Assembly (NCBI GenBank): GCA_035479295.1
Contig: DATIIV010000012.1
Location: forward strand, 65,010-129,009
Reading direction: 5' to 3'
Source: Candidatus Saccharimonadia bacterium
Lineage (GTDB): Bacteria > Patescibacteriota > Saccharimonadia > UBA4664
DNA length: 64,000 nucleotides
This document shows positions 1 to 56,455 of the stretch, in pieces (within the stretch, counting starts at the first letter, position 1; every line of letters starts with the position of its first letter). A model generated the notes under the pieces. It searched no databases, was not told where the DNA came from, and was given only the letters and a program-made list of their open reading frames with translations. The position numbers and the translations under genes are program-made.

Positions 1-177
1 AGCCACCAAAAGTTGCAACTGGGCGTACTGGCACTGTTCCCGTTTACCTGGCCGCTCTTCTATTTCTTGGTCTGGGTCGAGTACGTCGTGCTGCTCAAGA
101 GCCTGGCCATGATTCTGCGCGGCGGCGAGATCGAGTGGCAGAGCTGGGAGCGTCGCGGCGTGGAGGAGGGGGCATGA
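1..177 (+). CDS. 3' end of a family-2 glycosyltransferase-like membrane protein (partial, start outside window)
   Basis: Frame 1 is open from base 1 to TGA at 175-177. The translation ...LFPFTWPLFYFLVWVEYVVLLKSLAMILRGGEIEWQSWERRGVEEGA is a TM helix followed by a W..W.ERRG tail, typical of C-termini of processive GT2 synthases. The stop overlaps the next start (ATGA). Confidence 0.4.
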   Translation, partial: SHQKLQLGVLALFPFTWPLFYFLVWVEYVVLLKSLAMILRGGEIEWQSWERRGVEEGA

Positions 178-26757: not shown

Positions 26758-27165
26758 CTACTCAGACTCGAGCGTCGGCGCCTCTTTGGCCGGCAGGTTC
26801 AGGTGCTGGCGCAGGCGAGCCATGACATCGGCAATAACGACCTGCGACTTCACCAGATAATCGTCGGCACCCAGCTCTTTGGCCCGGGCCTGATCGTTGG
26901 CTTGACCCAGCGCCGACAGAATCACGATCTTAATGCGGCTCGTCTCGGGCGTATGGCGCAGAATATCCAGCACGTCAAAGCCGTTGAGGCGCGGCATCAT
27001 AATATCGAGCAGGATCAGATTGGGCTTAAAGTCGCGGGCAGCCTGCAGCGCCTCTTCGCCATTACTGCAATGCTTTACCTCGAAGCCCTCGGCCTCCATG
27101 CGCATTTGGTAGAGGCTGGCTAGGGTGAGGTCGTCTTCGACCAGTAGGATGCGGGGTTGACTCAT
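26758..27165 (-). CDS. receiver-only (CheY-like) response regulator
   Basis: ILLVEDD, phospho-acceptor context LILLDIMMPRLNGFDVL, IVILSAL, and DDYLVKS (conserved Lys). At 135 aa there is no output domain. Confidence 0.9.
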   Translation of the reverse strand: MSQPRILLVEDDLTLASLYQMRMEAEGFEVKHCSNGEEALQAARDFKPNLILLDIMMPRLNGFDVLDILRHTPETSRIKIVILSALGQANDQARAKELGADDYLVKSQVVIADVMARLRQHLNLPAKEAPTLESE

Positions 27166-27259: not shown

Positions 27260-29263
27260 TTATCGGAGTGAGGTTGGCGGTTTGGGTCGGCGCCATAGCC
27301 AGTGGTGCAGGGTTAGGCTGATGCCGCCGAGCAGGCCCAGGCTGAGGCCAATCAGCGAGGCGTTGACGGCCGTCTTGTTGCCCTTAAGCGGCGCAAAGAG
27401 TAGGTTGCGAATGGTCTGGAGGGGCGACAGGTTGTTCTGTACGTCGACGCGCCGGCTGGCTATTTGGGTCTGGCCGCTGGGCGTGGTGGTGACGGCCGTG
27501 ACGGTGTGCTGGCCGTTGGTGAGGTAGGTAGTGTCGAGCTGATTGCCAGTGGTAACGGGCGTGCCGTCGACTTTAATGATGGTGTGGCCGCGGCTGCCCG
27601 GCGTGCCCAGGCTGATGGTGCCGCCCACCACGGGCTGGGCACCGGCCGGAATGGGTACCGGCGTGCTGGTGCCGGGCGGCGTAATGGTAATGGGGTTGCC
27701 GCTGCCCGGCGCCGGGCTGGGCGAGGGGCTGGGGTTGGGCGGTGCCTGGGTCTGTACGGTGAGGTTGGCCCGGGCCGAGGCGTTGCCGGCGGCGTCGTAG
27801 GCCTCCACCTGAAAGGTGTAGTTGGTGGAGGCCGCCAGATTCTGGGCGAGGTAGCTGGTGCCGGCCTGGTCGGCCACGCGGCTGCCGCCCTGGTACACGC
27901 GGTAGCCGCGCACACCCACATTGTCGCTGGCGGCGTTCCAGGCCAGGCTAATCTGGGCGTTGGTAATGAGCGTGGCGCGCAGGCTGCCCGGCACCGACGG
28001 CGCCTGGGTGTCGCCGGGATTGGGCGTCGCGGTGGGCGGAGTCGTGGGCGTGGGAGTGTGGGTGGGCACCGGAGTTGGCGTGGGGGTATGAGTGGGGACG
28101 GGCGTGGGCGCTGTGGTTGGGGGAGGCGTTGGTGCGGGAGTGGTCGCGGCCAGGCTGTGGGCATAGTTCCAAATCAGCTGCCCCAGCGCATCGATGTTCG
28201 TGGGGTTGCCCGAGCTATTAACGGCCACATTGTAGAATGGCCCGCCGCCGTTCACAAACTCAAATCCGCTCAGGCCGTTGCCGTGCCAGGGCAGAATGCC
28301 CACGCCCAACCCCGGTGCCACGCTAAAGGCCGCCTGGGTGCCGGCCTGCAGCAGCGGGTTGTCGCCGGAGCTATCGCCATCGATCCAGCCGGTCTCGCCA
28401 ATCATCAGCGGCAGGTTTTGGCCGTGCATGGCCTGAATAAAGCTGCTTAGCTGGCTGCTCTTATTGGCCCAATTGCCATACACATGCACCGAGAACGCTA
28501 CATTACCGTAACTATTTTTTAACCCCGGTCCATACTGCAAAAAGGCGCTCTGACTATGCCAATCGCCGCCGTAACTCTGCTCCTGGCCGCAGTTTGAGCC
28601 ATCGTACACAATCATATTTTGGGCGCCGGTGGCTCGAATAGCACTCGAGTAATCGTTCATCATGTTGGTCCAGGTGCTGTCGGCATTGCCACTGCCAGGC
28701 TCATTATATAAGTTGAACCAGACGTAAGGATTCGTCTTGTAACGATTAGCTTTGTCGATCCACCAGGTCTTAATGGCGGCGTAGTCGGTGCCATTAACGT
28801 AACCGCAATCGGCACGGGGGTGCATGTCTATCATCACCACCATATGGCGGTTGGTGTACTCGGTGACGATGCCGTCCAGGTCGTTATTAACGCCCGAGAT
28901 GCCGGGGGTGACGCCGGCGTTGTACTGCGACGGATTCTCGGGGCCGCTGTCGAGCTCGCTGTTGAGGCGGATGATGTTCCACTTCCAGGCGGCCTGGGCC
29001 GGCCCGCTCTCGCCCAGGGTGGGGTTACCCCACACAAAGTGCGGCCCGTCCAAGTTGGTCCCCACCGGCGTAAAGACGGCGCCATTGGGGTCGATAATTT
29101 GCCAGCCGCTGAGGTGAAAAGTGCCGGCCGCGAGGCTGTGGCGCACCACGTACAGGCCCGCGACGACGGTGAGCGCCACCACCGCCGCCATGGCCACTAA
29201 GCTCCAGCGGCTGGTTAGTCGAAGACGCCCGAGAGCGATTTTGGAGCGGCGCTTACGCCTCAT
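27260..29263 (-). CDS. glycoside hydrolase family 5 enzyme with PT-linker, FN3 domain, second beta domain and C-terminal TM anchor
   Basis: Start is ATG 29263 (MRRKRRSKIALG...) with an N-terminal signal anchor. GH5 motifs are FNLYNEPG (acid/base), SVHVYG and MIGETGW (nucleophile). FN3 is PSVPGSLRATLITNAQISLAWNAASDNVGVRGYRVY...YTFQVEAYDAAGN. The C-terminal segment is LIGLSLGLLGGISLTLHHWLWRRPK. Confidence 0.85.
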   Translation of the reverse strand: MRRKRRSKIALGRLRLTSRWSLVAMAAVVALTVVAGLYVVRHSLAAGTFHLSGWQIIDPNGAVFTPVGTNLDGPHFVWGNPTLGESGPAQAAWKWNIIRLNSELDSGPENPSQYNAGVTPGISGVNNDLDGIVTEYTNRHMVVMIDMHPRADCGYVNGTDYAAIKTWWIDKANRYKTNPYVWFNLYNEPGSGNADSTWTNMMNDYSSAIRATGAQNMIVYDGSNCGQEQSYGGDWHSQSAFLQYGPGLKNSYGNVAFSVHVYGNWANKSSQLSSFIQAMHGQNLPLMIGETGWIDGDSSGDNPLLQAGTQAAFSVAPGLGVGILPWHGNGLSGFEFVNGGGPFYNVAVNSSGNPTNIDALGQLIWNYAHSLAATTPAPTPPPTTAPTPVPTHTPTPTPVPTHTPTPTTPPTATPNPGDTQAPSVPGSLRATLITNAQISLAWNAASDNVGVRGYRVYQGGSRVADQAGTSYLAQNLAASTNYTFQVEAYDAAGNASARANLTVQTQAPPNPSPSPSPAPGSGNPITITPPGTSTPVPIPAGAQPVVGGTISLGTPGSRGHTIIKVDGTPVTTGNQLDTTYLTNGQHTVTAVTTTPSGQTQIASRRVDVQNNLSPLQTIRNLLFAPLKGNKTAVNASLIGLSLGLLGGISLTLHHWLWRRPKPPTSLR
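28017..28150 (-). repeat. Pro/Thr-rich linker-coding low-complexity repeat
   Basis: Encodes TPAPTPPPTTAPTPVPTHTPTPTPVPTHTPTPTTPPTATP, with the unit TPTPVPTHTP duplicated. Confidence 0.7.
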
Positions 29264-29379
29264 TGTGGTCCCTATTAATGTGCTTATGATTATATACTGC
29301 CTGCCCAGCAGTTGACGAATGCGGTTAAATGGGGGATTATGGGCGGTGCCTTGTACCGAATGTACGGGAGTAATTAGAC

Positions 29380-30366
29380 GTGACAGCTTACGCAGAAGTG
29401 GCCGATGGCCACTGGGTCCGTCCCTCATTTAGCGCCTATGAACTTGAGGTGGCGGAGCGAATTCTAGCCGGCTATTCTCACAAGGTGTTGGCGCAGTGGC
29501 GTGCCCAATGCGTGGGCGCGGAACGAACGGATACGTCGATCACTTCGGTGCTGACTCGCTTGGGCCGGTTGGTTGCACGAGGCGATTCGATTCGCCTGAC
29601 GGTCATCATGGCGGAGCTGAGCTTAATTAAGCTGCCGAATGTGCAGCCCTGGGAAACTGATGCCTTGATGGAATCGGGCCTCAGTTTTGCCTGGGAACAG
29701 ATCCTGGAGCTGGCCATGAATGGCTGCAGCGCTCAACAGATCGCGACGAGGCTAAACCTCAGCTTCTCGCAGGTTCGAGGGCGGATCAGAATGTTACGCT
29801 ACTCCGGCGCGTTTAGGCAGTCTAGACTAATCCGACAGGTGGCAGTTTGGCTGACAACGAGATCTTTCATTCCGGACCGGCTTTCGAAGCGGCCGGTGGT
29901 TCAGGGGCCTCTGCTCTGGCATTACCTGATGGGCTACGATGAAGTGGAGACTCAGAGGCGACTTAACTGCGTCCCGTGGGTGGTGCCAACTTGGACAGCT
30001 CAAATGTTGACGCGCCTGAGAGAGACCTCGCTACTCAGAAGTTGTTTGGACGGCGTGAATAGCGGTAGGCTGCGGCTACCCTATCCACTGCGAGGATCCG
30101 TGGAGGCGCTGACTAAGCAGCCGCTTAGCTCTCGGTGCGTGGAGGAGCTGCGCGATCACGTGATGCGCGCTCGGAATATGACCCTTCAGCAGCAGGCTGC
30201 ACTACGTCAGCCTCAGCCTGATTGGCACGACATCTGTCGTGAGGTGCGCGTCGATACGCCCTGGCAGGCCCTGATGGTTGGGGCGGGTTATGTGTCTAGG
30301 CTAGATCAGTGTGGTGCTTTGGCGCCTCCGAACGCCTACAAGGGAGACGCACAGAATGGCAGCTAG
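29380..30366 (+). CDS. protein of about four tandem LuxR/GerE-type HTH-like modules (paralog 1)
   Basis: GTG start after GGGAG. The best module is LSFAWEQILELAMNGCSAQQIATRLNLSFSQVRGRIRMLR. Three more degenerate modules are colinear with the next gene, for example GPLLWHYLMGYDEVETQRRL and TPWQALMVGAGYVSRL. Confidence 0.6.
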   Translation: MTAYAEVADGHWVRPSFSAYELEVAERILAGYSHKVLAQWRAQCVGAERTDTSITSVLTRLGRLVARGDSIRLTVIMAELSLIKLPNVQPWETDALMESGLSFAWEQILELAMNGCSAQQIATRLNLSFSQVRGRIRMLRYSGAFRQSRLIRQVAVWLTTRSFIPDRLSKRPVVQGPLLWHYLMGYDEVETQRRLNCVPWVVPTWTAQMLTRLRETSLLRSCLDGVNSGRLRLPYPLRGSVEALTKQPLSSRCVEELRDHVMRARNMTLQQQAALRQPQPDWHDICREVRVDTPWQALMVGAGYVSRLDQCGALAPPNAYKGDAQNGS

Positions 30367-31258
30367 CGATCTCGCTTGGGAGAATCCCTCGGAGCGACAG
30401 ATCTGCCAGCTTGTACTGGAGGGGAACAGCATACTTGGCATTGCCGAGCAGCTGGGACTGAGCCCCGGTGGCGTCAGAAGCAAGCTCAACCGAGTTCATA
30501 CCAGAACTGGCATTCACGGCCGGTCAGCGATGATCTTAGCGCTGACCGAAGCGGGCGTTCTAACCGTGCCGATCAGCCGAGCCCAGCAGCTAAAGACCTC
30601 TCCGGCGGTAATTCAATCTGACCCTTTCTGGTTGTTGCTAGCGGAGATATCGATGCTGGACGTCAGTCTCGGCTGGCTCAACAGTGCCTCTGGTCGCTCG
30701 GTTAAGCAGATTGACAAGCTGTGTGGCCGAGTTACTCGATTAATGCATAAGGCACACCCGGGTAGGTCCGTGCTTAACCAGATGGCAATCGATCGTGCTA
30801 TCCTGGGATCGATCCAACTGCCGCAGGCATCTCAACTGCAGCTGGTTTGGGGGCCGCTGCTATGGTACCTGCTGATGGGCTATGCGCCGCAGGAAATAGC
30901 CCTTGCTCTTTGCAAGAAAGGTTGGGTGATACCGGCGAAGAGATTAGTGGATCAATGGCTGGTGCGTTTGTGGAAGCAATGCGGCAGCGCTGGTGTGGCC
31001 CCGACACTCGTGCGGCTCGTGCGGCAGCGTCAGGTGCAGCTGCCCTATGTGCTGCAGCGGGCCACTGATCGGCTGAAGTTCATGGTGCCGGATGCTGCGC
31101 TGAGCGAGCAGTTAGATCAATGTTACGATACACTGGTGCGGCGGAGTCTGCCGCTGGGCGTTAACCTTAAAGACCAGTTTGGGCTCTGCGACCGCCTGGG
31201 AGTGGCCAATCCCTGGCAGGCTATGTTGGTGGCCGCCTATTTGGGGCGGCTGCGGTAA
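30356..31258 (+). CDS. protein of about four tandem LuxR/GerE-type HTH-like modules (paralog 2)
   Basis: ATG at 30356 follows AGGGAG and overlaps the upstream stop by 11 nt. The canonical module is PSERQICQLVLEGNSILGIAEQLGLSPGGVRSKLNRVHTRTGIHGRSAMILALTEAGVL. Further modules are GPLLWYLLMGYAPQEIALAL... and ...LCDRLGVANPWQAMLVAAYLGRL. Confidence 0.7.
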   Translation: MAASDLAWENPSERQICQLVLEGNSILGIAEQLGLSPGGVRSKLNRVHTRTGIHGRSAMILALTEAGVLTVPISRAQQLKTSPAVIQSDPFWLLLAEISMLDVSLGWLNSASGRSVKQIDKLCGRVTRLMHKAHPGRSVLNQMAIDRAILGSIQLPQASQLQLVWGPLLWYLLMGYAPQEIALALCKKGWVIPAKRLVDQWLVRLWKQCGSAGVAPTLVRLVRQRQVQLPYVLQRATDRLKFMVPDAALSEQLDQCYDTLVRRSLPLGVNLKDQFGLCDRLGVANPWQAMLVAAYLGRLR

Positions 31259-31260
31259 CT

Positions 31261-31292
31261 AGGGCGGGGAGGCATTCGTGCCTCCCCGCCCT
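31261..31292. terminator. bidirectional hairpin terminator between convergent genes
   Basis: AGGGCGGGGAGGCA-TTCG-TGCCTCCCCGCCCT: a 14-bp perfect stem with a TTCG tetraloop, followed by TAACCATTTTT. Confidence 0.75.
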
Positions 31293-31315: not shown

Positions 31316-32113
31316 CTACACCTCCACCGTCTTTATCGTCCACATATCCCAGGCCAGGCCGCGATTGCCCAGGTAGGCGAACGGCAGGTAAAAATACCCC
31401 TTATCGCCCCAACCGGTGCCCCAAGAGTTGCGGCCAATGAACTGCTGCTTGGTCTGGTCGTAGCCCACAATCAGTACGGCGTGGCCGCCCAGCAGTTTCT
31501 CGCTCTTGTGGGGCAGAGGAATGACGCCGGTCGTATTAGCGGCTGGGCTCTCAAAGCTCTCATACACTGAGATACCGGTAATGAACGGGTAGCCGCTAGC
31601 TAGGCAGGCCAGCATATCGCCGAAGGGATTGAGGTGATGGGTGACGATGCGCTGATAGGTAAGGGCTTGATTTTTTTCGGCTTCATCAAAGCACTTTTTG
31701 GTAGGCTTAACGGTAAACTTGGTAATGTCGTAAGGCCAATCCGTCTCGGGTGCGCTCCCAATCTTAACGAGAACTTTAACACCATCGCGCAGCCGGGCGC
31801 CGGCATCGCTGTTAACCGTGCCTTCCACATCGCGCTCGTTCCAGTAAATAAAAAGACGGCTCGGTGTCATAAAGGCCTTGCCCTCTTGGTGGCGGTCAAA
31901 GTCGAAAGCGGCGGCCAGCGCGTTAGCGGTGCAGCTGCCCAAGTGGCCTTGGTTGTAAATGGGCGGACATTTGTGGCGCAGATCGGCCTGGGGCGGCAGG
32001 GGAGCGGCTACTTGGGCTAGGGCGGCCGTGCCGTCAAAGATGTGGTCCCGTTGGTCGGGTAGGTCGGGTAGCCAGCCGAGGCCGTGGTTTTGAGGAGTAA
32101 CGTTGTGTGCCAT
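31316..32113 (-). CDS. papain-like (C1 family) cysteine peptidase, no signal peptide (paralog 1)
   Basis: Catalytic context NQGHLGSCTANAL (Gln/Cys), GGHAVLIVGYD (His) and GRNSWGTGWGDKGYFYLP (Asn-Ser-Trp). The N-terminus has no hydrophobic signal. Confidence 0.9.
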   Translation of the reverse strand: MAHNVTPQNHGLGWLPDLPDQRDHIFDGTAALAQVAAPLPPQADLRHKCPPIYNQGHLGSCTANALAAAFDFDRHQEGKAFMTPSRLFIYWNERDVEGTVNSDAGARLRDGVKVLVKIGSAPETDWPYDITKFTVKPTKKCFDEAEKNQALTYQRIVTHHLNPFGDMLACLASGYPFITGISVYESFESPAANTTGVIPLPHKSEKLLGGHAVLIVGYDQTKQQFIGRNSWGTGWGDKGYFYLPFAYLGNRGLAWDMWTIKTVEV

Positions 32114-32283: not shown

Positions 32284-32679
32284 ATGGCATTGCGAATTCT
32301 GATTGTCGAAGATTCGGTTAGCATTCGTATGTTGTACCAGGAGGTGCTACACAAGGCGGGCTATGAGGTCGAGGTGGCGACGGACGGCCAGGTAGCCTTG
32401 AGGCTGGCTCAGGCGCAGCCGTTCGACTGTATTGTGGTTGACATGTTGATGCCAAACCTTGATGGGCTGGCCTTTCTTAAGGCCTTTGATTGTCGACGTC
32501 ATCCCAAGACGCGCGTGATCATGGCCAGCAACTTGGACGATCCGCAGAAACGCGAGCAGGCGCTGGCGCTGGGTGCGGCCGCCTACATCATCAAGGCCGA
32601 GGTGTCGTTGCCGGAGTTATTGCGCAAGATTGATCCGACGCGGCCTGCTCCCGGAGCTTCGGCCGAGGGCGTGCATTAA
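32284..32679 (+). CDS. receiver-only response regulator
   Basis: ILIVEDS, CIVVDMLMPNLDGLAFL, VIMASNL, AAYIIKAE. 131 aa, ending 30 nt before zwf. Confidence 0.9.
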   Translation: MALRILIVEDSVSIRMLYQEVLHKAGYEVEVATDGQVALRLAQAQPFDCIVVDMLMPNLDGLAFLKAFDCRRHPKTRVIMASNLDDPQKREQALALGAAAYIIKAEVSLPELLRKIDPTRPAPGASAEGVH

Positions 32680-34758: not shown

Positions 34759-36987
34759 TTAGCTCTGGGCGGCGGCGCCAGACTCAGCCGTTTTGGCTCT
34801 AGCCTTAGCTTCGGCCGCTGCTCCGTTGGGTTGCGGCAGCACAATTACCGAAGTGGTCTTAAGCGGCAGCGCGAAGCCAAAGATGCTACCCTTGCCCTCC
34901 TCGGACTTAAAAATAATCGAGCCACCTTGGTCCTCGATCACGCGCTTAGCTAGGTACAAGCCCAAGCCGGTGCCGTCCGGCCGCTCGGCCTTGGCGTTCT
35001 CGGCCCGGTAAAACTTGGAGAACAGGTGACGCTTCTCGTTCTCTGGCACGCCAATGCCGCTATCGATTACCAGCACCTCGGCAGCGCCCTCAGACTCGCG
35101 CACCTCCACCGTGACGCTGCCCTTGGGCGTGTAGTAAATGGCATTATCGATAAAATTCATAATCACCTGGCGCGTCTTGCTCTCGTCGATCGACAGCATG
35201 GGCAGCGGCTTGTCGGGCTGCTTAAAGATGAGTTCCAGCTTCTTGCGCTCGGCGCTCGGCCGCAGCTGCTGCACCTCCTGCTGGGCCAGCTCGCTCAAGT
35301 CCACCGGCTGGCGCTGAATCATAAACCGCCCCGAGCTCAGTCGCGACACATTCAGCAGATCGCTCGACATCGACACCATCCGCTCGGCCGCCTCTAGCGC
35401 GTAGTTAACATACTCGCGCTGCTTCACCGTCATGTTGGCCTGGTCGTCATCGAGCGCCATCGACAAGTAGCCGGTAATGGCGGTCAGCGGCGTGCCCAGC
35501 TGGTGCGACGCCATCGAGATGAAGTCGTCTTTGGTCTTATCCAGCACCTGCAAGTTGCGGTTGGCGGTGCGCAGTCGGTGCGTCGCATTGCGAATCCGCT
35601 CCTGCAGCGTGGCGTTAAAGTGGGCGATCTCTTCGTAGGATTTAGCGTTCTCAATCGCTACGGCTAGTTCTTTGCGGACGATATCGAGCAGCGTCAGATC
35701 CTGGCCCGAATACATTTCGCCACTCATCTTGTAGCCCAGGAAGAGATAGCCCACTAGCTCTTTCTCGGTGCTTAACCTAATAATGACGCCTAGGCCATGC
35801 TCCTCTAGGAATGATTTGGTTGCACCGGGCTCAAGCTCATCTGCTACCAAGGTGCTAGCGTTAATGTGCTCTAAATCCTTGTAGGTAAGTTTATAACGGG
35901 GCTCGTCACCAATGAATGTACGACTATAAATACTGTTGTTCTCGACAATGATGATTTGACCAGTAGCGATGCGCAATGACCAACAGAGCGTGCGCAATGA
36001 CTTCTTGAGGAGCGGTTCAAGTAAGAGCTCTGAAGTCAGAATCTCGCTTAAATCATCGAGCACGATCTGACTGTCGTAGCGATCTCGAAAGAATATGCTG
36101 TCGGTGACCTTCTCGAACAGTCGGCGTAAAGGCTGAAAGGTAATGGCTAGAAATAGCGCCAGGGCAACAAAGACACCAGTTTGGGCTAGCGGGATATTAT
36201 TCTGAAAGAGAATGTTGCTTGCCGCTAGGATGGTAATTCCATACAGGCCAATAAAAGTTGTAAGAAGCAAAAGATAGGCAACTGATCGGGCGACGGCTAG
36301 CCTGATACTAAAGAGTCGATGCTTAACGATAGCGTACGAGACCGACCCCACCAAGAAAACGGTTAGCAATGGGCCGATGCGCGATATGTCCCAGTTGCCG
36401 ACGATAGCCGGAATGACAATGTTTGTGAGCACAGCCAAGATAATAAAACCCGCTATTCCCAGCATAATAAGACGAGTTTGAGCGCGAAGCCGCAAGTCGA
36501 TTCCAGTGTTCCGGTACAGCTTCCAGAGGTAGTAGCAAGATAGTCCAAACATCACCAAGATGAAAATGGGGTAGAGAGTATAAAGGCTGCCGAGAGCAAC
36601 GTTGGTTCCTCCGTCGGGCCGCTTTGAGACGGGACCAACCACGAAATCGCTTAAAGAGAAGATGGTGCCAGCAATAATAATGACGGCACTAACAAGCTGT
36701 CTCCGCTTGCTGGCGCTTTGTTTGCCGCCAAAGTAAAACGCAAACAACGTTATGGTGGCTAACACGAGAAAACCGGCGCCAAAGTCAAGGCGAGCAAAGA
36801 ACTGATCAAGGCCAAGCGTGGGAGCTCGGTCGGTAAGATAATTGAAGATCGTCCAGGCGGTGATTGACAGGGAGATGCCAAAAAACGCCCGACTCTCGGC
36901 TCGCTGAGGGTTACGCATAAACACGAGCGAGCCGAGAGCCAAATTGCTTACTGAGGCGAGTATGAGGATGGCGAGGTCAAATATCAT
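34759..36987 (-). CDS. multi-TM + GAF sensor histidine kinase (HisKA_7TM/PrsK-like architecture), paralog A
   Basis: About nine N-terminal TM helices (MIFDLAILILASVSNLALGSLVFMRNP...). GAF-like block (LVGYLFLGYKMSGEMYSGQDLTLLDIVRKELAVAIENAKSYEEI). H-box FISMASHQLGTPLT, N-box NFIDNAIYYT, DSGIGV, GTGLGLYLAK. ATGA overlap with the upstream gene. Confidence 0.9.
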   Translation of the reverse strand: MIFDLAILILASVSNLALGSLVFMRNPQRAESRAFFGISLSITAWTIFNYLTDRAPTLGLDQFFARLDFGAGFLVLATITLFAFYFGGKQSASKRRQLVSAVIIIAGTIFSLSDFVVGPVSKRPDGGTNVALGSLYTLYPIFILVMFGLSCYYLWKLYRNTGIDLRLRAQTRLIMLGIAGFIILAVLTNIVIPAIVGNWDISRIGPLLTVFLVGSVSYAIVKHRLFSIRLAVARSVAYLLLLTTFIGLYGITILAASNILFQNNIPLAQTGVFVALALFLAITFQPLRRLFEKVTDSIFFRDRYDSQIVLDDLSEILTSELLLEPLLKKSLRTLCWSLRIATGQIIIVENNSIYSRTFIGDEPRYKLTYKDLEHINASTLVADELEPGATKSFLEEHGLGVIIRLSTEKELVGYLFLGYKMSGEMYSGQDLTLLDIVRKELAVAIENAKSYEEIAHFNATLQERIRNATHRLRTANRNLQVLDKTKDDFISMASHQLGTPLTAITGYLSMALDDDQANMTVKQREYVNYALEAAERMVSMSSDLLNVSRLSSGRFMIQRQPVDLSELAQQEVQQLRPSAERKKLELIFKQPDKPLPMLSIDESKTRQVIMNFIDNAIYYTPKGSVTVEVRESEGAAEVLVIDSGIGVPENEKRHLFSKFYRAENAKAERPDGTGLGLYLAKRVIEDQGGSIIFKSEEGKGSIFGFALPLKTTSVIVLPQPNGAAAEAKARAKTAESGAAAQS

Positions 36988-38215: not shown

Positions 38216-38623
38216 TTACGCCGCCCCAGCTGCTCCCGGAATCTCGTCCTTGGTATAGCCCGCCAAGATGCCGCGGACGATCTCCTCGACCTGCTTGGGC
38301 TTGTGCTCGCTCTTGATGATGTAGCGGACGGCGCCGAGCTCGAGGGCGGTCTGGACGTCGCTGTTGCCGGCCAGGTTGGTGAGCACCACCACCGGAAGAT
38401 TGGCCACGGCCGGATCGGCCTTGAGCTGCTTGAGCACCTCCATGCCGTTAAGCTTGGGCATCATGATGTCGAGCAGAATGAGCGTGGGGTTAACCGAGCG
38501 TGCTTTGTCGAGGCCCTCTTGGCCGTCGGTGGCCAGTTCAACCTCGTAATTATTCGAGGCAAAGATCGTCTGATACATCCGCGAGAGTAAGGCGTCATCT
38601 TCGATGATTAGAATCTTAGGCAC
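38216..38623 (-). CDS. receiver-only response regulator (cassette A)
   Basis: ILIIEDD, LILLDIMMPKLNGMEVL, VVVLTNL, VRYIIKSE. The preferred start is GTG 38623 with GAGG 8 nt upstream. Alternative ATG starts lie at 38650 and 38734. Confidence 0.85.
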   Translation of the reverse strand: MPKILIIEDDALLSRMYQTIFASNNYEVELATDGQEGLDKARSVNPTLILLDIMMPKLNGMEVLKQLKADPAVANLPVVVLTNLAGNSDVQTALELGAVRYIIKSEHKPKQVEEIVRGILAGYTKDEIPGAAGAA

Positions 38624-38737
38624 ACTGAAAACCTCATTTACGCCCATCATACACGAGGCAAGCGAGAAGCGGAAGCCCTTAAGCATAAGCTTTATCAAAG
38701 GACAAATTTCGCGGTTGAGCCGATGGAGCGGCAAATG

Positions 38738-39658: not shown

Positions 39659-40444
39659 CTATGCCTCCACGAGCTTGATGGTCCACAGATCGGAGGTCAG
39701 CTCGCGATCGGTGAGGTAGGCGAGCGGCAGGTAAAAGTAGCCGGCGTCGCCCCAGCGCTTGCCCCACGAGTTGCGGCAGATGAAGTAGCCAGCGGCCATG
39801 TCGTAGCCCACCACCAGGATGGCGTGGCCACCCAGGAGCTCCTCGTTGGGCTTCGGCACGGGAATGACGCCGGTGCGGTTGGCCTCGTCGCTCTCAAAGC
39901 TGGCGTAGACCGCGATGCCGGCCACGAACGGGCGGCCGGCCGCCAAGCAGCTGCGCATGTTGGTGTCGTCGCTCGTTACCTTGATGCGAGCGTACGACAG
40001 CACCTGGTTGGAGAGCGCGTCAGCGTAGCACTGGGCGGACGGCTTGACGGTGAAGCGGCTGATGTCGTACAGCCACTCGCTCTCGGGCGGCACGCCCAGC
40101 TTGGCCAGAACCTTCATGCCGTCGCGAAGGTAGGCGCCGGCGTCGGTGTCGACGGTGCCCTCGCGTGCGCGCTCATTGTAGTAAATGAACAGCCGGCTCG
40201 GGCCGATGGGCTCCTGACCCTGCCGGCGACGCTCCATGTCGTAGGCCGCCGCCAGCGCGTTGGCGGTGCAGCTGCCCAGCTGGCCCTGGTCGTACACGTC
40301 CGGGCAGTCCGGGCGCAGGTCGATGCTATTGGGCAGCTGCGAGGGGCGGATGTCTAGGCCGGCGCGGTCGAACTTGTGGTCGCGGGGGTCGCGCGGATCG
40401 GGGATATTCCCGAGGCCGTGGCCGCGGGGCGTTACGAGCGCCAT
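39659..40444 (-). CDS. papain-like (C1 family) cysteine peptidase, no signal peptide (paralog 2)
   Basis: DQGQLGSCTANAL, GGHAILVVGYD, CRNSWGKRWGDAGYFYLP. Colinear with 31316..32113 and roughly two-thirds identical by eye. Confidence 0.9.
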   Translation of the reverse strand: MALVTPRGHGLGNIPDPRDPRDHKFDRAGLDIRPSQLPNSIDLRPDCPDVYDQGQLGSCTANALAAAYDMERRRQGQEPIGPSRLFIYYNERAREGTVDTDAGAYLRDGMKVLAKLGVPPESEWLYDISRFTVKPSAQCYADALSNQVLSYARIKVTSDDTNMRSCLAAGRPFVAGIAVYASFESDEANRTGVIPVPKPNEELLGGHAILVVGYDMAAGYFICRNSWGKRWGDAGYFYLPLAYLTDRELTSDLWTIKLVEA

Positions 40445-51912: not shown

Positions 51913-52299
51913 CTAAACCTTCTTGGCTAGTAGCGCCTTTACCCGCTCCGTCACCTCTTTGGGCGTCATCTCGGCCTTCACAATGTAGTCGTCGGCGGCC
52001 ATTTTGTAGACGCGCGTGGCCGTCTCGGTGTCGCCCATGTTGGTTAGCACGACCACTTTAGCGTCGCGCCCATTGGCCTGAGAACGCAGCTTTTGCAGCA
52101 TCTCCAAGCCATTCATATTGGGCATCATCAAATCGAGCAAAATAATATCAGGTGCAAACGACTCAATTAATTCCAGTCCACCGGCGCCATCGCCGGCCGT
52201 GGCCACCTCGTAGCCCTCATTCTCAAACTTCACCCGATACATCTGCACGATCGCCATGTCGTCCTCGATGATCGCCACTTTGACTTTTTGGTCACTCAT
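51913..52299 (-). CDS. receiver-only response regulator
   Basis: VAIIEDD, IILLDLMMPNMNGLEML, VVVLTNM, DDYIVKAE. 128 aa. Confidence 0.9.
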   Translation of the reverse strand: MSDQKVKVAIIEDDMAIVQMYRVKFENEGYEVATAGDGAGGLELIESFAPDIILLDLMMPNMNGLEMLQKLRSQANGRDAKVVVLTNMGDTETATRVYKMAADDYIVKAEMTPKEVTERVKALLAKKV

Positions 52300-53844: not shown

Positions 53845-56013
53845 ATGGATTATCGGGCATTACTTCTATTTTTAGTAACGGCTGCGAATCTTTTCCTGGG
53901 TCTTGCCGTTTACTTTCGCAATCCTCGCAATCGCCAGTATATCTATTATTTTGCTTTTGCCTCATCGATAGCGCTCTGGACCTTAACCAACGGGCTCTAT
54001 CAGATTTTCCCGCCGCGCCTCCTTTTATCGATGGCGCTTTTGAGCTATGCCAGTGCCATCCTTATGGCCACCTTTTTCCTGCTGTTTAACCGTGAGTTTA
54101 CCAAAATTAAGCTAGGTCCTGACTGGCTGATCCTGCTTGTGGGCGGCCTAATGGCCTTAGTCGCGCTCAAACCTGGCGTACTAGCCTCCTCGATCGCTGC
54201 TGATCGCTCCATTGTTACTACTCCGGGAATCGCTGTTATGGCCATCTTGCTGGTTGGGTTTCTGTCGTGGGGCTTATTACTGTTGGTTGCATCGTTGCGC
54301 CGAGCTCGAGGCTTAGTCCGCACTCAGCTGCAGTTTATGTTGGCTGGTATGACAACTGCCGCCTTAATGGGGGTGCTATTTAACTTAGCACTACCGGTAA
54401 TGGGCCATATTTATACCTATGTTTATCTCGGCCCCGACTTCACGACTTTTTACGTCGCTGCCATTGCCTACAGCGTTATTCGGCAGCGTCTCTTTAACTT
54501 ACGGGTAGCTATTGCTCGGACGATAGCGTATCTTTTGGTCTTAACGGCTATGGCTGGCATGTACATTGCGGCTATTTTAAGTATAACTTCATACTTCTTG
54601 CCGTCGGGTCGGATCTCTGGCAGCCAAAATCTGATCTCGACCGTCGTAGCGATTGTACTGGTTTTCACCTTCCAACCCCTCCGCCGCTTCTTTGAGCGCG
54701 TTACCGACAGTGTGTTTTATCGTGATCGGTACGATTCGCAGGTGGTGTTGAATGAGTTCAGCAAGGTGCTGGTGTCGGAGCTGGATCTGGATCGGATTCT
54801 GCGCCGCAGCCTCAGTCAGCTGTGCCGCGACGTGCACATTCAGTTTGGGCAGCTGGTGATCTTTAATCAGGACCGAGTGTACCGGGTGGAGCACTTTGGG
54901 CCGCTGCCCAAGCGGCTGATGGTGGCGCCGGAGCTGCGGCGGCTGGATGAGTCGCTGCTGGTGGCCGATGAGCTTGAGGCCGGCGAGCGCAAGACCATCA
55001 TGGACGAGCACGCCGTGCGTGTATCGGTGCGGCTGGCCACCCGCGATGAGTTCGTGGGCTACCTGCTGCTGGGCGATAAGCTGTCGGGCGATATTTACTC
55101 CAACCAAGACATTGAGCTGCTGGAGATTATCGGTAAGGAGCTGGCCGTGGCGATTCTGAATGCCAAGGCCTATGCCGAGATCGAGGCTTTTAACCGCACA
55201 CTGCAGGAGCGGGTCGATCACGCCACCAATCGACTGCGCGTGGCTAACCGCCACCTCAAAGAGCTTGATAAAGCCAAAGATGAGTTTATTAGCATGGCCT
55301 CGCACCAGCTGCGCACGCCGCTCACTACCATTAAGGGCTATCTGAGCATGATGCTGGAGGGCGATGCCGGGCGTCTCACCGCCGCCCAGAAGCAGTTTGC
55401 CGGCTACGCTTTTAGCTCGTCGGAGCGCATGGTTAACCTCATCTCCGACCTGCTTAATGTAAGCCGCCTAAGTGCCGGCCGTTTTCTGATTCAAACCAAG
55501 CCCACCGATATGGTGGCGATGGTGGCCGACGAGGTGCGTCAGCTGCAGAGCCATGCCGCGGCTAAGCACATTAGCCTCATCTTTGAGCAGCCACCAGCTG
55601 ACTTTCCGCTGGTGGAGATCGATGAGAACAAGACGCGCCAAGTCATCATGAACTTTATCGACAACGCCATTTACTACACCCAGACCGGCAGCGTGCGGGT
55701 GCGGCTTACCTTGGCCGGGCCGATCGTGCGGCTCGAGGTCATCGACACTGGCATTGGCGTGCCAGCAGCCGAGAAGCGCCACCTGTTCACCAAATTTTAC
55801 CGGGCCGAGAATGCCCAGGTGGTGCGGCCAGACGGTACCGGTCTAGGTCTGTATTTGGCCAAACGAGTGGTGGAAGATCAAGATGGTACAATACTATTTA
55901 GTAGCACCGAAGGCAAGGGTTCGGTGTTTGGATTTGAGCTACCGATTAAGCCCCGCCACAAGTCGGCGCCCAAATCGGCCAACGATAAGCAGAAGGAAAA
56001 CCAGCATGGCTAA
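53845..56013 (+). CDS. multi-TM + GAF sensor histidine kinase (HisKA_7TM/PrsK-like architecture), paralog B
   Basis: About nine TM helices (MDYRALLLFLVTAANLFLGLAVYFRNP...). GAF-like block (FVGYLLLGDKLSGDIYSNQDIELLEIIGKELAVAILNAKAYAEI). H-box FISMASHQLRTPLT, NFIDNAIYYT, DTGIGV, GTGLGLYLAK. Colinear with 34759..36987. Confidence 0.9.
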   Translation: MDYRALLLFLVTAANLFLGLAVYFRNPRNRQYIYYFAFASSIALWTLTNGLYQIFPPRLLLSMALLSYASAILMATFFLLFNREFTKIKLGPDWLILLVGGLMALVALKPGVLASSIAADRSIVTTPGIAVMAILLVGFLSWGLLLLVASLRRARGLVRTQLQFMLAGMTTAALMGVLFNLALPVMGHIYTYVYLGPDFTTFYVAAIAYSVIRQRLFNLRVAIARTIAYLLVLTAMAGMYIAAILSITSYFLPSGRISGSQNLISTVVAIVLVFTFQPLRRFFERVTDSVFYRDRYDSQVVLNEFSKVLVSELDLDRILRRSLSQLCRDVHIQFGQLVIFNQDRVYRVEHFGPLPKRLMVAPELRRLDESLLVADELEAGERKTIMDEHAVRVSVRLATRDEFVGYLLLGDKLSGDIYSNQDIELLEIIGKELAVAILNAKAYAEIEAFNRTLQERVDHATNRLRVANRHLKELDKAKDEFISMASHQLRTPLTTIKGYLSMMLEGDAGRLTAAQKQFAGYAFSSSERMVNLISDLLNVSRLSAGRFLIQTKPTDMVAMVADEVRQLQSHAAAKHISLIFEQPPADFPLVEIDENKTRQVIMNFIDNAIYYTQTGSVRVRLTLAGPIVRLEVIDTGIGVPAAEKRHLFTKFYRAENAQVVRPDGTGLGLYLAKRVVEDQDGTILFSSTEGKGSVFGFELPIKPRHKSAPKSANDKQKENQHG

Positions 56014-56455
56014 CACTGATACCGCCCATCAACCGGCCCAGCTGGGGGCCGGCAAGATCATCTTAATCGCCGAGGACGATCCGTTTATTTCGCGCATGTA
56101 CGAGATCAAACTGCAGGGCGCTGGCTTTACGGTTATCGTTAAGAATAATGGTCGCGACGCCTTTGAGGCTATTAAGTCTGAGCATCCGAGCCTGGCCGTC
56201 CTCGACATTAATATGCCCGAGCTGAGCGGTCTTGAGGTATTATCGGCACTACAGAGCGACGGCTTTGATCTGACGACCATGCCGGTAATCGTGCTAACCA
56301 ATTCGTCGGAGCTGTCGGATCGCAAAAAGGCGCTCAGCTACGGCGCCGAGTACCTGGTAAAGGCCGAGCTCACGCCGCGCGAGGTGCTTAATATGATCGA
56401 CGCCAAGCTCGGCCTCGACCCTGGCGACAGCGAGGCTAAGCCGGCCGATGCTTAG
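56006..56455 (+). CDS. receiver-only response regulator (cassette B)
   Basis: ATG at 56006 overlaps the kinase stop by 8 nt. ILIAEDD, LAVLDINMPELSGLEVL, VIVLTNS, EYLVKAE. Confidence 0.9.
   Translation: MANTDTAHQPAQLGAGKIILIAEDDPFISRMYEIKLQGAGFTVIVKNNGRDAFEAIKSEHPSLAVLDINMPELSGLEVLSALQSDGFDLTTMPVIVLTNSSELSDRKKALSYGAEYLVKAELTPREVLNMIDAKLGLDPGDSEAKPADA

Follow-up and report, generated by a model that had tools for sequence, protein, structure and literature searches.

Two adjacent sensor-less paralogs with GerE-like modules in a Candidatus Saccharimonadia genome

Can a bacterial regulator be assembled from repeated helix-turn-helix (HTH) modules of the LuxR/GerE type, with nothing to sense a signal? 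The question is raised by two adjacent genes, here called p1 and p2, on a 64,000-nucleotide stretch of a Candidatus Saccharimonadia genome (the window: positions 65,010 to 129,009 of contig DATIIV010000012.1, assembly GCA_035479295.1). A first-pass annotation of the window had proposed that both products are built entirely from about four GerE modules. The answer given by profile comparison is a partial one: three consecutive units are related to GerE above the level of all controls, and the fourth scores no better than the controls do. With moderate confidence, p1 and p2 may be regarded as co-translated, sensor-less multi-GerE DNA-binding regulators that would act at a divergent promoter common to a gene of the GH5 (cellulase) family.

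The modules of p1 and p2

The gene models agree with the first-pass annotation, which had described two neighbouring open reading frames (ORFs) of 328 and 300 amino acids (aa). The start of p2 lies over the stop of p1, with an overlap of 11 nt; a GGGAG Shine-Dalgarno sequence is found 9-10 nt 5' of each gene, and an independent gene caller run on the source contig returned the same models. p1 is identical to one NCBI protein from a metagenome-assembled genome (VLI05_02880). The two products are collinear paralogs (residues 8-308 of p1 against 4-299 of p2, 23% identity, E 1.5e-14), most similar in their C-terminal halves (E 1e-9), and the motifs GPLLW..LMGY and PWQA..V.A, quoted in the annotation, are indeed common to both. 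Pfam and NCBIfam scans also bear out the absence of any receiver, autoinducer-binding or other sensor domain; PF03472, the autoinducer-binding domain of quorum-sensing LuxR receptors, gives no match to either protein at E <= 10. PHROGs and PADLOC scans of the pair return generic HTH matches only, with no phage or defence assignment.

How many modules are there? An alignment of the family (p1, p2, their homolog P0003 and the frameshifted gene of locus L002 after reconstruction) was divided into four units, U1 to U4, and the unit profiles were compared by hhalign with each other and with a 10-sequence GerE seed. Reversed sequences and 120 decoy segments of 74 aa, taken from other long ORFs in the window, served as controls. 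U1 matches the GerE seed over the whole domain (97.6% probability, E 5e-12), followed by U2 (E 9e-5) and U3 (E 1.7e-3). The units also recognise each other: U1 matches U3 at E 1.1e-4 across 54 columns and U2 at E 2.4e-3, and U2 matches U3 at E 4.7e-3. The reversed sequences reach E 0.04-0.8, the decoys peak at a score of 16-17 against 20-60 for units 1-3, and all six pairwise alignments among U1, U2, U3 and GerE fall into one mutually consistent register. A comparison with P0006, a 323-aa metagenomic protein (locus L006, 4001-4972) in which Pfam finds four significant GerE domains and nothing else, points the same way. The family profile matches it at E 8.5e-6 locally, through units 1 and 2, and at E 1.3e-5 globally, through units 1-3 (reversed control 0.51), and units 1-3 align collinearly with its consecutive GerE domains 2-4. 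Judged by their sequences, unit 1 belongs to the LuxR/GerE HTH superfamily, and units 2 and 3 are GerE-like but degenerate.

The Pfam evidence is thinner. Against the GerE model PF00196, for which the gathering score is 23.5 bits, residues 13-60 of p2 (unit 1) score 22 bits within the whole protein and the isolated unit 24.5 bits, while residues 107-129 of p1 (unit 2) score 20.3 bits in the full protein, the unit reaching 17.7 bits alone. The latter unit also matches HTH_24, Sigma70_r4_2 and HTH_7 in Pfam, a transcriptional regulator in PHROG (E 2e-5) and the GerE seed HMM (i-E 1.3e-4). These are the two LuxR_C-like units that had been called canonical, and both are true HTH matches. p1 unit 1 lines up with p2 unit 1 in every column and gives no Pfam match when scanned alone, units 1 and 2 of P0003 give weak HTH-type matches only (E 0.005-0.03), and units 3 and 4 of all four family members give nothing at E <= 10. 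The matches thus sit on different units in different proteins (U2 in p1, U1 in p2, U1 and U2 in P0003), and since the alignment is collinear, those in unit 1 of p2 and unit 2 of p1 indicate that both units derive from an HTH. The Sigma70_r4_2 matches are weak (E 0.004-0.03) and coincide with the HTH modules that GerE matches; they are the weaker of the two everywhere but in P0003 unit 2, to which GerE gives no match. Neither Sigma70_r2 nor region 3 nor any anti-sigma domain was found in p1 or p2 by Pfam and NCBIfam scans, and membership of the sigma-70 family was rejected for lack of a region 2.

Smaller features follow the same parse. A module typically ends in a helix followed by hydrophobic-x-L-P. 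Each of the four members shows this in units 1 and 3, and p2 in unit 2 as well; the remaining unit 2 ends are degraded versions of this signature, and unit 4 coincides with the end of the protein. A near-canonical recognition helix is present in one module per paralog, GGVRSKLNRV in p2 unit 1 and SQVRGRIRML in p1 unit 2. Unit 1 has the four-helix fold with the HTH in helices 2-3, and a search of the family profile against PDB sequences found LuxR/FixJ-type domains only, through unit 1 only (E 1e-5 for PDB GerE). The AlphaFold2 (AF2) model of p2 is helical throughout, with helix and loop lengths of 11-4-8-3-15-4-10 in unit 1 and 11-4-8-3-18-5-14 in unit 2, which is the GerE pattern, although at low predicted local distance difference test (pLDDT) values.

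A number of observations weigh against a repeat of four GerE modules. U4 scores E 0.11 against GerE and 0.26-0.51 against units 1-3, within the range of the reversed and decoy controls, and only its last ~20 residues (LC.rLGV.npWQA.lVa.y.G.L) match GerE, at KLGV..R.qa, the end of helix 3 plus helix 4. When the full-length profile is aligned with itself, the off-diagonals at one- and two-unit shifts reach E 0.004-0.005, compared with 0.011 for the reversed profile. Per-domain Pfam scanning, which the first-pass annotation had suggested as a check, yields one borderline GerE match per protein, none above the gathering score at full length, and leaves units 3 and 4 empty. Fold searches likewise give a single module-sized match. 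The p2 model, another of the suggested checks, has a pLDDT of 46 from the single sequence and 54 from a four-row alignment, too low for a verdict on units 2-4; it shows the GerE pattern in units 1 and 2, fuses helices 3 and 4 of unit 3 (the start of which follows the GerE pattern), and gives unit 4, at pLDDT 70-83, a pattern of 11-5-16-14-5-4-10 that is unlike an HTH. Putative recognition helices, finally, are poorly kept among orthologs, that of P0003 unit 1 reading SAAQALMQQAPY. The claim of a protein built entirely from such modules therefore stands for units 1-3, which beat the decoys at the profile level, and is unproven for unit 4.

Could each chain then be a regulator with a single HTH? 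In that case p2 unit 1 and p1 unit 2 would be the functional domains, and the remainder would be an all-alpha dimerisation or ligand-binding domain, its weak likeness to GerE reflecting ancient duplication or helical bias rather than function. The single Pfam-level match per chain, the lack of statistical support for unit 4 and a full-length repeat signal close to its reversed control all favour such an arrangement, as does the C-terminal half, the most conserved and best predicted part of the protein, in which Trp and Leu are abundant and not the residues that typically contact DNA. On the other hand, units 2 and 3 beat every decoy and reversed control in a single register, units 1-3 are collinear with consecutive true GerE domains of P0006, and the HTH matches change units from one member to the next. 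A single-HTH regulator is, on balance, unlikely, though it is the most probable of the alternatives.

Comparison with known regulators

The closest structural counterpart of unit 1, which it matches over the full length, is the C-terminal HTH domain of LuxR/FixJ proteins and of GerE from Bacillus subtilis (PF00196; 1fse, 6jqs, NarL 1je8, TraR 1h0m). Sequence and fold are shared, including the four helices with the HTH in helices 2-3, and the GELEL at the end of GerE corresponds to G.L.LP in the p1/p2 family. GerE also lacks a sensor domain, as do p1 and p2. It is, however, a single dimerising module of 74 aa, whereas p1 and p2 consist of three to four modules in about 300 aa, most of them degenerate, with the canonical module at or near the N-terminus rather than at the C-terminus. 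NarL/FixJ response regulators use the same type of output domain, and p1 and p2 are likewise encoded among two-component genes, but the NarL/FixJ proteins carry their receiver (REC) domain in the same chain and p1 and p2 do not.

The first-pass annotation had held that no concatenation of four GerE modules was described. P0006 resembles p1 and p2 in size, module period and the absence of a sensor domain, and because it has four canonical domains, the four-module architecture already exists in databases; the claim therefore falls for the databases, while literature searches brought up no account of regulators with tandem GerE modules. Two further proteins, P0005 and P0007, have two PF00196 domains each and are likewise uncharacterised. 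P0006 is not a close homolog of the p1/p2 family (whole-profile E 5e-4). Its domains are all canonical (196 bits in total), as opposed to one near-threshold module per chain and an unrecognisable fourth unit in p1 and p2, neither of which has two or more Pfam-significant GerE domains; what the family has in common with P0006-like proteins is a series of consecutive GerE-homologous modules at a constant period, for units 1-3 at the profile level. P0006 occurs on five metagenomic contigs, and in the three for which the context was seen, there is no adjacent full-length paralog and no synteny with GH5 or peptidase genes. (At locus L008, the gene just downstream of that for P0006 encodes a GerE-domain protein of 205 aa.) The adjacent pairing of paralogs and a family of about five sequences thus also set p1 and p2 apart. 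They are an unusual variant of a very common type of regulator, and the fourfold GerE architecture, though uncharacterised, is already in the databases.

Other proteins place several HTHs in one chain. AraC/MarA has two HTHs and the archaeal Cbp1 three HTH repeats, and both bind DNA as single chains. Here the likeness is one of principle, several HTHs reading an extended asymmetric site; the HTH subfamilies differ from those of p1 and p2, and membership is unsupported, the NCBIfam HTH_Cbp1 match to p1/p2 being weak (E 0.006, far below the cutoff).

The p1/p2 family is tiny and lineage-specific, with about five known sequences. When 1.84 billion representative proteins were scanned exhaustively with HMMER, the only full-length homolog besides p1 and p2 was P0003 (302 aa, E 9e-43), accompanied by a 118-aa fragment, P0004; the marginal matches were canonical multi-GerE proteins. 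Word-indexed searches, whether started from p1, p2 or the family alignment, retrieved nothing outside the query genome, degenerate-pattern scans of metagenome and genome contigs gave no confirmed relatives, and no third member was found in the window. P0004 is the C-terminal half of the L002 gene, which is cut into two called genes near position ~850 by a one-base deletion in a G-run (TGGGCCC against TGGGGCCC; coverage 1.9x), probably an assembly error rather than a pseudogene. This L002 gene occupies the position of p1, yet is nearer to p2 in sequence (30% against 20%).

The two relatives lie in the same surroundings. L001 has the C-terminus of a p1-like gene, P0003 and the same convergent papain-family peptidase gene, in this order, and in L002 the start of the divergent GH5 gene and the intergenic region match those of the window. 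Conservation is strikingly uneven. The peptidases of the window and L001 are 92.5% identical in amino acid sequence, compared with 41% between p2 and P0003 (window 30356-31258 against L001 234-1142; 51% within unit 3), and the promoter blocks of the window and L002 are near-identical beside flanking proteins (29380-30366 against L002 361-1262) that share 20-30%. Divergence of the regulators has thus outpaced that of their surroundings by a wide margin.

The locus and a possible mechanism

What might such proteins bind? The most obvious candidate lies directly upstream of p1 (Table 1). In the intergenic region that p1 has in common with the divergent GH5 gene, a consensus scan finds two back-to-back sigma-70-like promoters at 29289-29340: TTGACG (29312-29317) with GATTAT (29335-29340) on the + strand, and TCGTCA (29318-29313) with TATAAT (29294-29289) on the - strand. 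Their -35 hexamers overlap (TTGACGA / TCGTCAA), so that RNA polymerase at one promoter might exclude the other. All of these elements are kept in L002, as are the blocks TTAATGTGCTTATGATTATATAC, GTTGACGAA and GGGATTAT.GGCGGTGC of the region. At the other end of the pair, a perfect 14-bp stem (predicted RNA fold -36.6 kcal/mol, z -5), which is kept in L001, is likely to be a bidirectional terminator that ends the p1-p2 operon. With promoters in the 116-bp intergenic region and a hairpin after p2, the pair forms a discrete bicistronic operon. Two findings speak against this picture of an operator and a coupled pair: no operator-like intergenic motif recurs elsewhere in the window (as judged for a conserved 23-mer; 9-mers from the conserved region occur 56 times in the window, with 53 expected), and L001 does not have the 11-nt overlap, its genes being separated by about 50 nt.

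Table 1. Positions in the window of p1, p2, their units and the surrounding features
Feature	Position	Strand	Description
p1	29380-30366	+	GTG start, 328 aa; first gene of the pair; NCBI "hypothetical protein" VLI05_02880
p1 unit 1	29380-29637	+	aa 1-86; degenerate GerE-like module, insertion before recognition helix
p1 unit 2	29638-29877	+	aa 87-166; best-kept HTH of p1 (LSFAWEQILELAMNGCSAQQIATRLNLSFSQVRGRIRML)
p1 unit 3	29878-30081	+	aa 167-234; conserved module with GPLLWHYLMGY, GerE-like in profile comparison
p1 unit 4	30082-30363	+	aa 235-328; helical C-terminal unit ending ICREVRVDTPWQALMVGAGYVSRL, then 20-aa tail; GerE kinship unproven
p2	30356-31258	+	ATG start, 300 aa; NCBI HSX02238.1, "LuxR C-terminal-related transcriptional regulator"
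p2 unit 1	30356-30571	+	aa 1-72; near-canonical four-helix GerE/LuxR HTH domain
p2 unit 2	30572-30823	+	aa 73-156; HTH-like but degenerate, collinear with p1 unit 2
p2 unit 3	30824-31045	+	aa 157-230; the family's most conserved module (WGPLLWYLLMGY...QWLVRLWKQCG...VQLP)
p2 unit 4	31046-31255	+	aa 231-300; conserved C-terminal unit, helical, ending FGLCDRLGVANPWQAMLVAAYLGRL; GerE kinship unproven
Likely terminator hairpin	31261-31292		Between convergent p2 and peptidase C1 genes; perfect 14-bp GC-rich stem, loop TTCG, then T-run
GH5/p1 intergenic region	29264-29379		116 bp, common to divergent GH5 gene and p1; candidate operator region
GH5 (cellulase family) + fn3 protein	27260-29263	-	Divergent from p1; secreted or anchored; syntenic neighbour, candidate target
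Papain-family (C1) peptidase	31316-32113	-	Convergent with p2; Pfam Peptidase_C1; syntenic in L001
REC-only ORF	26758-27165	-	Essentially receiver domain alone
REC-only ORF	32284-32679	+	Essentially receiver domain alone
REC-only ORF	38216-38734	-	Essentially receiver domain alone
REC-only ORF	51913-52299	-	Essentially receiver domain alone
REC-only ORF	55883-56455	+	Essentially receiver domain alone

The preferred reading of the locus may be set out as follows. p1 and p2 would be a bicistronic, translationally coupled pair of sensor-less LuxR/GerE-type DNA-binding paralogs, each chain a head-to-tail series of GerE-derived four-helix modules of about 75 aa, the fourth keeping only the signature of the terminal helix. 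DNA binding is suggested because all members are basic (isoelectric points of 9.5 for p1 and 9.9 for p2, and 9.2-9.9 in the family) and because each of p1 and p2 has one module with VR.K or VR.R recognition residues. The Trp-rich C-terminal half (units 3 and 4), the best conserved part, more likely acts as a scaffold or oligomerisation surface. A canonical GerE domain dimerises through helix 4 to bind DNA. In p1 and p2 the concatenation of modules could provide the dimer partner in cis, replacing the usual helix 4 homodimer, and the second paralog could add more. With a partner in cis and a second paralog, p1, p2 or a p1:p2 heteromer might read an extended, non-palindromic site, most probably in the conserved 116-bp divergent promoter region common to the GH5 gene. 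Since the -35 hexamers of the two promoters overlap, binding there would regulate both the p1-p2 pair itself and the GH5 gene. The first-pass annotation had likewise suggested extended or repeated operators, which are purely hypothetical.

A different possibility is that the proteins do not bind DNA at all and that the degenerate HTH repeats have a role as protein-protein scaffold or decoy, titrating for instance RNA polymerase, sigma factors or other regulators. The recognition helices of most modules are degenerate and variable among orthologs, weak Sigma70_r4_2 matches accompany the GerE matches, and the fast divergence (41% identity beside a 92.5% identical neighbour) would suit such a role. 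It is nevertheless improbable, given the strongly basic character of all members, the GerE-like VR.(K/R) residues in one recognition helix per paralog and the absence of any Sigma70_r2 or anti-sigma match in p1 and p2.

Where does the signal come from, if the regulators have no sensor? The first-pass annotation had counted five output-less receiver proteins in the window, a count that is correct, and had suggested p1 and p2 as their missing DNA-binding partners. p1 and p2 would then dock the phosphorylated stand-alone RECs encoded nearby and give them a DNA-binding output. The arrangement of the genes is suggestive: none of the five REC-only ORFs has a GerE-type or other output domain, none is a conventional DNA-binding response regulator, no GerE domain was found in the window besides those of p1 and p2, and the pair is flanked by a REC plus PAS-histidine-kinase operon just past the GH5 gene and, 1 kb downstream of p2, by another REC gene. 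However, the receivers that are naturally fused to GerE domains are those of the NarL/FixJ type. The adjacent REC (26758-27165) is nearest to receivers of the OmpR/PhoB family (RpaA, MtrA, CpxR) and that at 32284-32679 to CheY/PleD; neither is closest to NarL/FixJ. The idea of a REC partner gains no support, because these domains are OmpR-like and CheY-like and not NarL-like, and detached two-component outputs seem a doubtful explanation of the pair. A split NarL/FixJ-type response regulator was rejected on the same subfamily assignments, p1 and p2 themselves having no REC.

The remaining neighbours include two secreted or potentially secreted types of hydrolase. The GH5 gene product matches Pfam Cellulase (1.8e-29) and fn3, and it also carries a linker rich in Pro and Thr and, at the C-terminal end, a hydrophobic segment; upstream of the L002 homolog, both its N-terminus and the start region are kept. 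(The ORF reaches 29428; conservation in L002 favours a start at 29263, MRRKRRSK..., and the gene caller chose 29191.) A second papain-family C1 paralog lies at 39659-40444 (-), and the L001 peptidase gene has 82.5% nucleotide identity to 31316-32113 and 68% to this paralog. The neighbourhood as a whole comprises the GH5+fn3 gene, the REC plus PAS-histidine-kinase operon, the C1 peptidase, the second REC, G6PD, a GDSL lipase and a seven-transmembrane (7TM) histidine kinase, the last (34759-36987, -) with an N-terminal HisKA_7TM domain and followed by a gene for a 270-aa protein without a Pfam match and an ORF resembling AdoMet decarboxylase.

What would the finding mean? A bolder proposal is that p1 and p2 represent an undescribed class of sensor-less multi-HTH regulators in a single chain, in which the one competent recognition helix of each paralog occupies a different module (unit 1 in p2, unit 2 in p1), a heteromer sits on a long asymmetric operator, and this heteromer possibly serves as a shared, detachable DNA-binding output for the stand-alone receivers so common in this segment; this must be considered a long shot. 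The practical value is modest, with about five known sequences and a function that is inferred. If the multi-GerE reading is true, the commonest output domain of bacteria would have been multiplied and degraded into a repeat protein, giving a single-chain or heteromeric reader of asymmetric DNA in a lineage of the candidate phyla radiation with a reduced genome. Regulators of the candidate phyla radiation are poorly understood, and a fast-evolving, lineage-restricted pair of them beside secreted hydrolases (GH5 and a papain-like peptidase) may matter for an epibiotic or scavenging lifestyle.

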